Origin: Thermotogota bacterium
GTDB lineage: Bacteria; Thermotogota; Thermotogae; Petrotogales; Petrotogaceae
Assembly (NCBI GenBank): GCA_051748045.1
Contig: JBNJGY010000055.1
Location: 1 to 11,198, forward strand
Direction: 5' to 3'
DNA: 11,198 nt
Positions 1 to 3,000 of the stretch are shown one piece after another. A program made the position numbers. How positions within the stretch are numbered: position 1 is the stretch's first letter; the number at the start of each line of letters is the position of its first letter.

Positions 1-3000
1 TTCTTCGTTTGTTGGAACAACCATTAATTTAACTCTTGAGTCTTCAGTTGATACGATTTTTTCTTCACCTTTAAAATCATTAATTTCTTTATCAATTTTT
101 ACACCTAAATAGCTAAGGTAATTTTCTGCTATTTCTTCTCTCATTATAGGTGAATTTTCTCCAACGCCAGCAGTAAATACTATTGCATCTACACCGTTCA
201 TAGCAGCTGCATAAGCACCGATGTATTTTGCGATTCTGTATTCGTAAATATCAAAAGCCATCCTTGATACTTTTTCACCTTCTATAGCGTTATCTTCAAT
301 ATCTCTCATGTCAGAATATTTTTTTGTTACTCCCAACATACCAGATTTTTTATTCAAGATATTCAACATTTCTTTTGGAGTTATTTCTTCTTCTTTACAT
401 ATGAATTCTATTATAGCAGGATCCAAATCTCCACTTCTTGTTCCCATTGCTAGCCCTTCTAATGGTGTGAATCCCATTGATGTGTCAATAGATTTACCGT
501 TTTTAACTGCAGCTACAGAAGCACCATTTCCAATATGACAAGTGATAATTTTTAGATCTTCTGGTTTTTTACCTAAAACATCAGCTGTTCTTTTTGCAAC
601 GTATCTATGTGATGTTCCATGGAAACCATATCTTCTTACTTTATATTTTTCATAATATTCATATGGAATTGCATATAAATAAGATGTTTGTGGCATTGTT
701 TGGTGGAAGGAAGTATCAAAAACACCAACTTGATCGGCGTTTGGTAATAATTCCATAGATGCTTTTATTCCCATTACATTTGCTGGGTTGTGAAGTGGAG
801 CCAAGAAAGACATCAATTCAATAGTATCTAATACTTCTTTATTGATTCTAACAGAAGAAGCAAATCTCTCTCCACCGTGAACAACTCTGTGACCCACAGC
901 ATCAATTTCTTCTAATGATTCTAATACACCGTGATCTGAAGAAACTAATAAATCTAGTACCATTTTAAGACCTTTTTCATGGTCTGGTATATCATCTTCA
1001 ATTATATTTTTTTCTCCATTTACTTTGTGGACAATTCTTGAGCCATCAATACCTATTCTTTCAACTAATCCTTTAGCCAAAACATTTTCGTTTTCCATGT
1101 TCAATAATTGGTATTTGATTGAAGAGCTTCCTGAGTTTATAACTAATACTTTCATTTCAAAACCTCCTTAGATTTTTTTCAATAAAGTTTATCATATTTT
1201 TTTTAACTTAATTTTACTTATTAATGTTATTAAAAAGAAAAAGGGAGAATTTCTCCCTTTTTCTTTATTTTAATAGTTCTTTATATAAAGGAAATTTTTT
1301 GGCTAAATCTTTTACTTCTGTAATTATTTCTTTCTGAATGATTTCGTCTATAGATCCTTCATCGTCTTTTACATTTTTAGCAACTTTTGCAATTAATTTT
1401 GCTATAGTTTTCATTTCTTCTTCTTTCATTCCCCTTGTAGTTAGTGCAGGTGTTCCGACTCTAATACCTGAAGTGACAAAAGGTGATCTTTGTTCTTTTG
1501 GTACTGTGTTTTTGTTAACTGTTATATGACATTTTTCAAGTCCTTTTTCCATAGCTTTTCCTGTAACGTCTAAATTGGTTAGATCTATCAATAACAGATG
1601 TGAATCAGTTCCTCCAGAAACAATTTGCATACCATTATTTTCTAATTCTTCGCCTAATGTTTTAGCATTCATTACAACTTGTTTTTGGTACATTTCAAAT
1701 TCTGGTTCTAAAGCTTCTTTGAAAGCAACAGCTTTTGCAGCTATTACATGTTCTAAAGGTCCACCCTGTATTCCAGGGAAGATGGCTTTATTTACAGCTT
1801 TGTATATTTCTTTATCATTAGTTAATATCATTCCACCTCTTGGTCCTCTCAATGTCTTATGAGTTGTAGTTGTTACGACATCAGCGTAATCTAAAGGATT
1901 AGGGTAGATTCCTGCAGCAACTAATCCAGCAAAATGAGCCATATCAACCATTAGTAAAGCATCTATTTCATCTGCGATTTCTCTGAATTTTTTGAAATCT
2001 ATTATTCTCGCATAAGCACTTCCACCAGCTACTATGATTTTTGGCTTGTTTTTTAATGCTACTTCTCTAACTTCGTCATAATCAATTATTCCTGTATCTT
2101 CATTAACACCATATGATACAACGTTGTATAAGTTTCCAGAGAAGTTAACTGGAGATCCGTGAGTTAAATGTCCACCGTGAGATAAAGACATTCCCATGAA
2201 TGTATCTCCTGGTTTAAGAAGAGCAAAATAAACTCCCATGTTAGCTTGAGAACCTGAATGTGGTTGAACGTTTGCATATTTTGCATTGAACAACTCTTTA
2301 GCTCTATTTCTTGCTAAGATTTCTCCTTTATCTACAACTTGACAACCACCATAATATCTTCTTTTTGGGTATCCTTCAGCATATTTGTTAGTTAAAACAC
2401 TTCCCATAGTTTCCATAACAGCTATAGATGTGAAGTTTTCTGAAGCTATAAGTTCTAATCCGAACTCTTGTCTTTCCAATTCTTCGTTGATGATATCATA
2501 AATTTCTGGGTCGGACTTTTTAACATTTTCCCACATGGTTTTCACCCCTTCTTATTTAATAAAATATATTCATTCATATTATAAACCAAAGGTTAAAAAA
2601 ATAAAACTACTCGATTAATGTGAATATGAAATCTCTTTCATGAAATTTTTTTCATATCGCCTTTATTTAACCATAATCCTATTTAATTCCCCATATGTTA
2701 TCTCTATGGGTTTTGTGATTTAATGTAAATTTGACTATAATAAATATAGAAGGGAAAAATTATTCATAAGGAGGTAATTCTATAATGAATTATGAATCAA
2801 AATTATCATGTGTGGCTCGTGGAATTAAATCAAGTATTATAAGAGAACTTTTGAAGGTAGCAAATGACCCAGGTATGATTAGTTTCGGAGGGGGAGTACC
2901 AGATCCTGATACATTCCCTAGACATAAAATGGCAGAAATTGCAAAAAACATTATTGAAAACGAATATAAATTCGTTCTTCAATATGGAACAACAGAAGGC

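Follow-up and report, generated by a model that had tools for sequence, protein, structure and literature searches.

The palindrome RTGAAA-W4-TTTCAY marks a regulon centred on amino-acid catabolism throughout the Petrotogaceae, and on comparative sequence evidence we consider it very probable that it is the binding site of the protein encoded by g0757, a descendant of BkdR that would have turned from a sigma-54 activator into a sigma-70-dependent regulator of ~25 targets. The first-pass annotation of the window (the whole stretch of 11,198 nucleotides analysed here) had described the regulon without naming its regulator, for which a strong candidate has now been found. A reconstruction of Thermotogales regulation reported no global regulons for sugar use (PMC3750489); one Thermotogota family would now gain a global amino-acid regulon with a named candidate regulator. 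The case would also be a clear, independent example of a one-operon sigma-54 activator becoming a sigma-70 global regulator, with the ancestral state, an intermediate state (rpoN-less genera with one site), and the derived state all visible in genomes.

The operator and the genes that follow it

In the source genome (2.41 Mb, 28% G+C, 9.1% intergenic by new gene calls), the core TGAAA-W4-TTTCA is intergenic at 25 of its 26 places and the strict form at all 14; the strict form had been described as mostly intergenic, which stands, with a count of 14 rather than the 19-24 given before. The claimed specificity of the four-base spacer is reproduced, since spacers of W0-3 and W5-8 yield only 0-2 intergenic matches each, and one of two matches to the reversed motif is intergenic. 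In 30 runs of an order-3 Markov simulation of intergenic DNA, sites arise 0.8 times on average and three times at most, against 24 observed, which answers the objection that an AT-rich motif could match by chance. A position weight matrix (PWM) splits ~27 sites (score 15-22) sharply from the remainder; site centres in this class are A/T, not CG, and the flanks of the sites are not repeated. The same genome carries a dispersed multi-hairpin repeat. Because this repeat ranks higher in a raw palindrome scan, the description of the operator as the most enriched intergenic palindrome needs a proviso: it is true once the repeat is set aside.

We surveyed 151 genomes of the phylum for the strict motif, among them 25 other Petrotogaceae and 125 members of other families. 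All 25 Petrotogaceae genomes are enriched, with 4-15 strict sites each (reversed control, 0-2), as expected of an operator that is both family-wide and specific to the family. Genomes outside the family mostly have 0-2, close to the 0-1 first reported, the exceptions being three genomes of genus g11 with 3-5 sites and one f7 genome with three. Sites outside the Petrotogaceae, genus g11 included, lie mostly within coding sequence or are local. The motif is conserved before orthologous genes in at least eight genomes of at least six genera.

Sixteen of 25 places in the source genome precede amino-acid or peptide genes: gdh, two class I aminotransferases, a class V aminotransferase with serA, hutU, tdh-kbl, glnA, two opp loci, lysine fermentation genes, arcABC, an SDH_alpha protein, glyA/aminotransferase-buk-vor, ord-ort-ora, iorA, and gcv. 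Three more precede mutase or Na-pumping decarboxylase beta subunits, two precede ppdk and an [FeFe] hydrogenase operon, and the remaining four a rubrerythrin-like gene, a CD0519-like membrane protein, an unknown gene, and a long leader before an O-antigen ligase. Two earlier target names need amendment: the site before "sdaA" is present, but the gene encodes a single-domain SDH_alpha protein without an NCBIfam match, and the small RNA proposed at 52 kb of contig C1 has no Rfam match at gathering score.

Core sites number 22, 20, and 11 in three relatives (G076, G082, and G068), where the same orthologues recur together with further targets: pfk, gap, FBP aldolase/phosphatase, ilvD, argJ, pheA, NADP-gdh, liv, metQ, and aldehyde oxidoreductase. 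Another 40 loci from five more genomes again include arcA, ord, gdh, opp, aminotransferases, lysine genes, iorA, mutase, tdh, and hut. The recurrence of orthologous targets across the family agrees with the proposed regulon centred on amino-acid catabolism, which is nonetheless broader than that: it extends to some genes of gluconeogenesis, glycolysis, and biosynthesis and takes in ppdk, FBP aldolase/phosphatase, pfk, gap, glnA, ilvD, argJ, pheA, and transporters. It marks genes of peptide fermentation and hydrogen production in organisms of anaerobic digesters and oil fields.

The tandem operator of the window and its promoter

The tandem site reported before glyA and an aromatic aminotransferase is present as two overlapping palindromes with a 14-bp period, between the divergent starts of glyA (2536, - strand) and the aminotransferase (2785, + strand). 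The features of the window are as follows.

1-1155: ackA, 3′ of glyA (TIGR00016)
1265..2536, - strand: glyA, serine hydroxymethyltransferase, divergent target (NCBIfam NF000586 above cut-off)
2626..2641, no strand: operator copy 1, 16-bp palindrome, core 2627-2640, centre TCTC and so not strictly W4
2640..2655, no strand: operator copy 2, 16-bp palindrome, core 2641-2654, centre TTTT (W4)
2655..2712, + strand: spacer of fixed length, 58 bp, with TAAT(C/T)-like words in ~10-bp steps, here at 2674 and 2684
2713..2741, + strand: candidate sigma-70-type promoter TTGTGA-17-TATAAT, a consensus match, serving the aminotransferase-buk-ptb-buk-vor operon
2785..4020, + strand: PLP class I/II aminotransferase, matches to MocR domains only (residues 20-404), no HTH
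4032..7083, + strand: butyrate kinase, phosphate butyryltransferase, and second butyrate kinase (NF002834/TIGR02707, NF004472)
7093..10384, + strand: P-loop protein, then ferredoxin and the alpha, beta, and gamma subunits of an oxoacid:ferredoxin oxidoreductase

The aminotransferase is probably of the aromatic/branched-chain type. The oxidoreductase is of the 2-ketoisovalerate (Vor) type, with NF005507 (VorB) above cut-off and matches for the beta and gamma subunits; the Pfam match of the P-loop gene is weak. Butyrate kinase and phosphate butyryltransferase convert acyl-CoA to the acid with a gain of ATP. The RNA runs provide contigs only, which cover pieces of the operon.

Taken in the window alone, the two exact 14-mers are not significant (1-mismatch count of 6 against 2.5 expected, 9 of 200 shuffles). 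Across the family, an exact TGAAA site precedes the operon in 22 out of 25 loci, the three misses being due to a short flank or a wrong anchor, and a first copy with a TCTC/TCTA/TCTT-type centre is found in genera g1, g3, and g7 as well. No -24/-12 element precedes the operon in the window or in any of the 25 loci. The best -35 element starts exactly 58 bp past the last operator in 17 of 20 Petrotogaceae genomes from seven genera, and a distance of 58-59 bp is also seen at four non-orthologous promoters. A constant distance of this kind is in keeping with activation from about -100. Elsewhere the geometry differs: judged by consensus promoter matches in AT-rich DNA, the site overlaps the -35 element at oadB, glnA, and tdh, and lies behind the -10 element at the lysine, ornithine, mutase, and pfk genes, positions that fit repression.

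A possible helical phasing between operator and -35 element was seen at 12 of 30 loci in an exploratory set (null 3.0), for which the windows were chosen afterwards. As a general rule it was not confirmed on fresh loci, where we count four out of 23 against 2.45 expected (66 of 300 runs reach 4), and the phase of TAATC words at other targets is not significant (185 of 2000).

From a BkdR-type activator to the candidate regulator

Metagenomes yielded 15 Firmicutes-type homologues of g0757 at or near full length. The gene is immediately followed by buk, ptb, or leucine dehydrogenase in 14 of them, where a -24/-12 element is present, and in 10 of the 15 the gap contains an exact TGCAA-N4-TTGCA, often as overlapping 14-bp tandems. 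The arrangement matches that described for Bacillus BkdR, which has two PAS domains and is encoded upstream of ptb, with a sigma-54 promoter (PMC4428206, PMC6461809). At one Firmicutes locus with S in the recognition helix, L276, the gap contains an exact TGAAA-W4-TTTCA too; another protein may read TGAAA sites there.

The TGCAA variant was predicted for the other Thermotogota before it was searched for, and 52 of the 125 genomes from other families carry it, at one to three places each (six in one). We fetched the loci for 39 of these genomes; in 27 the variant lies 40-251 bp before an orthologue of the window aminotransferase, the first gene of the ancestral target operon. A -24/-12 element, judged by eye, is present in 21 of these 27, all with rpoN, and the six without the element have no rpoN match. 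TGCAA matches in the six Petrotogaceae genomes whose loci were viewed are all in coding sequence. Comparison thus shows an ancestral activator, in the Firmicutes and the other Thermotogota, whose predicted equipment is TGCAA-W4-TTGCA and a single -24/-12 promoter; as far as sequence can tell, the tandem of the window occupies the position of this BkdR-type upstream activating sequence. The Petrotogaceae operator is a one-base variant of the same sequence, and g0757 is therefore a strong candidate for its regulator. It also follows that the operator, first called undescribed, is only partly so: the literature covered (RegPrecise, subscription journals, and bioRxiv supplements fell outside its scope) holds no description of the motif, the regulon, or the protein, and a deposited BkdR motif may exist in those sources. 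The comparison yields in addition a putative BkdR-type upstream activating sequence across Firmicutes and Thermotogota, and a sigma-54 target in Thermotogota.

We scanned 185,579 species for exact copies of the tandem and obtained seven loci. Three are clostridial: here the tandem lies 34 bp after a g0757 homologue (37% identity, same Pfam architecture) and ~170 bp before the -24/-12 promoter of leucine dehydrogenase/buk/vor. One of these genomes (3.0 Mb) has no other site. The other four loci comprise two instances of the Petrotogaceae's own operon and two unrelated ones.

The gene g0757 lies outside the window (C10:36308-37945, - strand, 545 aa) and is the one full-length homologue in the source genome. 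Its Pfam matches (PF00989 twice, PF00158, PF25601, and PF02954) describe a PAS-PAS-AAA+-Fis HTH protein, and an AlphaFold model (pLDDT 85) retains both PAS domains, the AAA+ fold, and the HTH, with NtrX, DmpR, and NtrC1 as top Foldseek matches. The best NCBIfam match is PrdR (289 bits, below the cut-off of 795), and over its full length the protein is 37% identical to a homologue before ptb with a -24/-12 promoter. An orthologue is present in single copy in 24 of the 25 other Petrotogaceae genomes, in a fixed radical-SAM/regulator/fliJ context and, in three genera, beside glnA. Two genomes depart from the pattern: in G073 the regulator gene is frameshifted before the HTH, yet 10 strict sites are kept, and G071 (62% complete) has the tandem but gave no match to g0757. 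Assembly faults or recent loss are the likely cause. The candidate is not clearly autoregulated: it has PWM rank 39 and a score of 11.3, against 15-22 for sites, and the PWM search found no regulator gene of the source genome with a full site.

In all 25 Petrotogaceae proteins aligned, the GAFTGA loop (~15 residues) is deleted and the DE of Walker B is lost, F[IL]EN or FIDN standing in place of the FLDE of other proteins, so that the ATP hydrolysis motif appears to be gone. A GAFTGA-like loop is kept in 21 of 25 orthologues from other families. All 24 Petrotogaceae proteins with an intact end have the helix TVRNLYYK; at its first position the 25 sampled orthologues from other families have 23 S, one G, one N, and no T. 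The source genome has no PF04552 (rpoN), and only nine of 25 relatives have a convincing match. The candidate thus combines the AAA+ domain, Fis HTH, two PAS domains, and bkdR-like descent of a sigma-54 activator with the absence of GAFTGA, of an intact Walker B (hhhDE), of rpoN, and of a -24/-12 target promoter.

The motif has spread in exactly that family in which the loop is deleted. Family f6 and genera g38/g39 of f9 have also lost rpoN or GAFTGA, and there is no large regulon there. A FastTree phylogeny was built from 55 proteins, which include 10 of the 25 from Petrotogaceae, over 559 columns and with an NtrC paralogue as root. In it, the Petrotogaceae proteins form a long-branch clade inside the Thermotogota and the clostridial T-helix proteins fall in a separate clade; the T-helix and the TGAAA operator therefore arose together twice. 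This leads to a one-residue prediction for operator specificity, helix S versus T.

These observations suggest the following course of events. An ancestral activator would have driven an aminotransferase/dehydrogenase-ptb-buk-vor operon for the oxidation of aromatic and branched-chain amino acids. In the Petrotogaceae ancestor, the GAFTGA loop was deleted, the DE of Walker B lost, and the first residue of the helix changed to T, while the operator passed from TGCAA-W4-TTGCA to TGAAA-W4-TTTCA and the operon promoter to a sigma-70 type; sites would then have spread through the genome to ~25 targets. The present protein would bind the palindrome as an HTH dimer and act on sigma-70 promoters as a ligand-sensing dual regulator like TyrR. 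We infer the sign of control from site position: activation where the site is upstream of the -35 element (the window operon, at a fixed 58 bp, and probably gdh, hut, opp, and FBPase), and repression where it covers the -35 element or lies behind the -10 element (tdh, oadB, glnA, the lysine and ornithine operons, mutase, and pfk). By analogy with BkdR, the PAS domains probably sense amino acids or the corresponding 2-oxo acids.

Known systems and competing explanations

BkdR, the SigL/sigma-54 activator of the ptb-bcd-buk-bkd isoleucine/valine operon in Bacillus, resembles g0757 in its two PAS domains, AAA+ domain, and Fis HTH (PMC4428206, PMC6461809), and BkdR-type systems share with it the ancestral target chemistry, the 14-bp site geometry, and overlapping tandems. 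Unlike BkdR, g0757 has no GAFTGA and an altered Walker B, would need no sigma-54, and is not encoded beside its target; its operator has TGAAA, not TGCAA, and its putative regulon ~25 operons, not one.

TyrR/PhhR, like DhaR, HupR, VpsR, and YplP, are homologues of enhancer-binding proteins that have lost GAFTGA and work with sigma-70 (PMC3162934). With TyrR the candidate shares the lost GAFTGA, the retained AAA+ fold, an amino-acid-related regulon, and sites both upstream of and over promoters, which suggests dual control. It is not a TyrR orthologue, scoring 163 bits against NF008085 (cut-off 576) with no Pfam match to ACT, and would have arisen separately; its Walker B is also changed, and the regulon is catabolic and fermentative, covering most amino-acid pathways. 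The TyrR box, TGTAAA-N6-TTTACA, differs in spacing from the Petrotogaceae operator.

The clostridial Stickland activators PrdR, LeuR, OrdR, MdeR, CdsR, and HiaR are PAS-AAA+-Fis proteins of amino-acid fermentation too, each needing sigma-54 and controlling one to six operons (PMC6615313). Targets divided among several of them would be covered by one protein in the Petrotogaceae. The supplement to that study has 20 occurrences of TGAAA and seven of TTTCA, none of them equal to TGAAA-W4-TTTCA, and no buk/vorB target.

As a single proposed regulator of genes for peptide uptake, catabolism, nitrogen assimilation, and central carbon metabolism, g0757 is comparable in role to CodY, CcpA, Lrp, and ArgR. 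CodY and ArgR are absent from all 26 Petrotogaceae genomes, extending to the whole set what was first noted of the family; Lrp/AsnC, for which archaeal FL11 was a lead, and NrpR were not found in the source genome, and there is no family-wide LacI. A bolder reading can be entertained only tentatively. It would make g0757 a catalytically dead, sigma-54-independent BkdR descendant that is master regulator of amino-acid fermentation and functional replacement of CodY/Lrp, activating sigma-70 promoters from about -100 with the 58-bp, 10-bp-phased spacer laid or wrapped around its oligomer (a mode that is not known for derivatives of enhancer proteins), with a single S-to-T change in the helix explaining the C-to-A shift of the operator in two lineages.

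Two readings give the sites, or most of them, to other proteins. The first, which we think improbable, is that g0757 reads only the window tandem while a second protein of the same specificity reads the remaining 24, mostly single sites, or that g0757 needs a partner binding the 10-bp-phased repeats. Tandem operators are indeed rare outside the aminotransferase-buk-ptb-buk-vor operon, and the TAAT(C/T) words that recur in phase across the spacer suggest a second binder or wrapping; the inventory of DNA-binding proteins in the source genome consists of family-by-family lists and is not exhaustive. Yet all sites form one sharp PWM class whose spread matches the deleted-loop family, and two proteins with one specificity are less economical.

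A shade less probable still is a LacI/CcpA-like or RpiR-like sugar(-phosphate) sensor, which would make this a catabolite-repression regulon of the CcpA/HexR kind. The same core occurs in the consensus of RpiR-type SpNanR and is near-identical to the CcpA cre (bioRxiv 2025.12.10.693482), LacI sites can lack a central CG and overlap at ~13 bp (PMC4052901), ppdk, FBPase, pfk, and gap are among the targets, and in genus g11 a TGAAA-W4-TTTCA precedes an operon with a hinge-degenerate LacI. Against this, the source genome has only three LacI proteins: g1409, which goes with a CG-centred site of its own, is missing from all seven g6 genomes, and the GalR-type pair goes with GGTAACGTTAC. With no family-wide orthologue, and operator centres that are A/T, LacI/CcpA was rejected. 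RpiR had already been judged unsupported, and both paralogues of the source genome fail on distribution or context: for g0724, preceded by a 1-mismatch site, close orthologues are confined to g1 and g7, and the other lies inside a sugar ABC operon without a site and was not found in g4; no single RpiR orthologue is present in all motif-bearing genomes. A LacI or RpiR reader would also leave unexplained why other genomes have the TGCAA variant, together with -24/-12, at the orthologous position.

That the sites are AT-rich chance matches, terminators, or repeat remnants deserves practically no weight even at 28% G+C and with a dispersed hairpin repeat present, given 25 of 26 places intergenic, the fixed spacer, 24 sites against 0.8 expected, conservation before orthologues, and unrepeated flanks.

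Among other regulators considered, the GntR, DeoR, TrmB, HTH_11, HTH_24, and HTH_3 lists contain only local or housekeeping regulators, and g2030, a second activator-like gene of NtrC type that keeps an intact GAFTGA, differs in its helix and does not occur throughout the family. The Rex box, TTGTGAA-N4-TTCACAA, has a different spacing; the genome encodes one Rex with a canonical helix, and its five intergenic boxes at two or fewer mismatches are at other genes, so that Rex-type sites are separate from the operator, as first described.

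Sigma-54 independence in genera g38 and g39 of family f9

The ancestral operator variant TGCAA-W4-TTGCA, which in other Thermotogota often precedes the aminotransferase orthologue at a -24/-12 (sigma-54) promoter, is retained as a tandem in genera g38 and g39 of family f9, which lack the sigma-54 gene rpoN (loci L385-L389; genomes G123, G124, G126, G127, and G129). The tandem lies just 40-90 bp ahead of the aminotransferase gene, the -24/-12 element is absent at these five loci, and the activator of G124 has an altered loop. This amounts to a second, local switch to sigma-54 independence. 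In family f8, the -12 element of the sigma-54 promoter is TTGAT, not TTGC, in all eight genomes seen (L372-L381 and L391). The rpoN products of f8 and f9 are short, with open frames of ~300-330 aa.

Spacing between operator and promoter

Between the operator and the -35 element, the words TAAT(C/T) recur at exact 10-bp steps, both in the window (2655-2712) and at three loci of genome G082 (L146, L153, and L154). The operon of genus g4 has no aminotransferase gene (L036, L213, L417, and L418), yet a tandem operator still stands ~340 bp upstream of buk, with its distance to the promoter unchanged at 58 bp. The arcA leader of G076 (L139) carries another 10-bp direct repeat array behind an operator site, differing from TAAT(C/T). 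One further leader of the window's genome, G000, lies behind an operator site:

C1:52093-52340 (= L007:2590-2840), leader, 247 bp

It has a sigma-70-like promoter ~60 bp downstream, and its Rfam matches are all sub-threshold, which speaks neither for nor against a candidate sRNA here.

Further occurrences of the motifs

With six exact TGCAA-W4-TTGCA sites, the highest count outside Petrotogaceae, G148 of family f11 may represent a second expansion. In genus g11, TGAAA-W4-TTTCA lies upstream of a beta-glucoside ABC operon encoding a hinge-degenerate LacI (L165:782, L047, L050, and L052), probably an unrelated, local use of the motif.

Other elements of the genome

C87:422-1759, g2030, NtrC-type activator, GAFTGA intact
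Window 10418-10506, minus strand, tRNA-Ser(GGA), directly behind the vor operon
C14:826; C16:774-830; C19:25750-25810, example copies of a multi-hairpin repeat
C19:17364-17519, REP-associated tyrosine transposase, fragment

The g2030 gene belongs to G000, which lacks rpoN. The multi-hairpin repeat (~150 bp, REP/BIME-like) is dispersed over ~35 places in G000.
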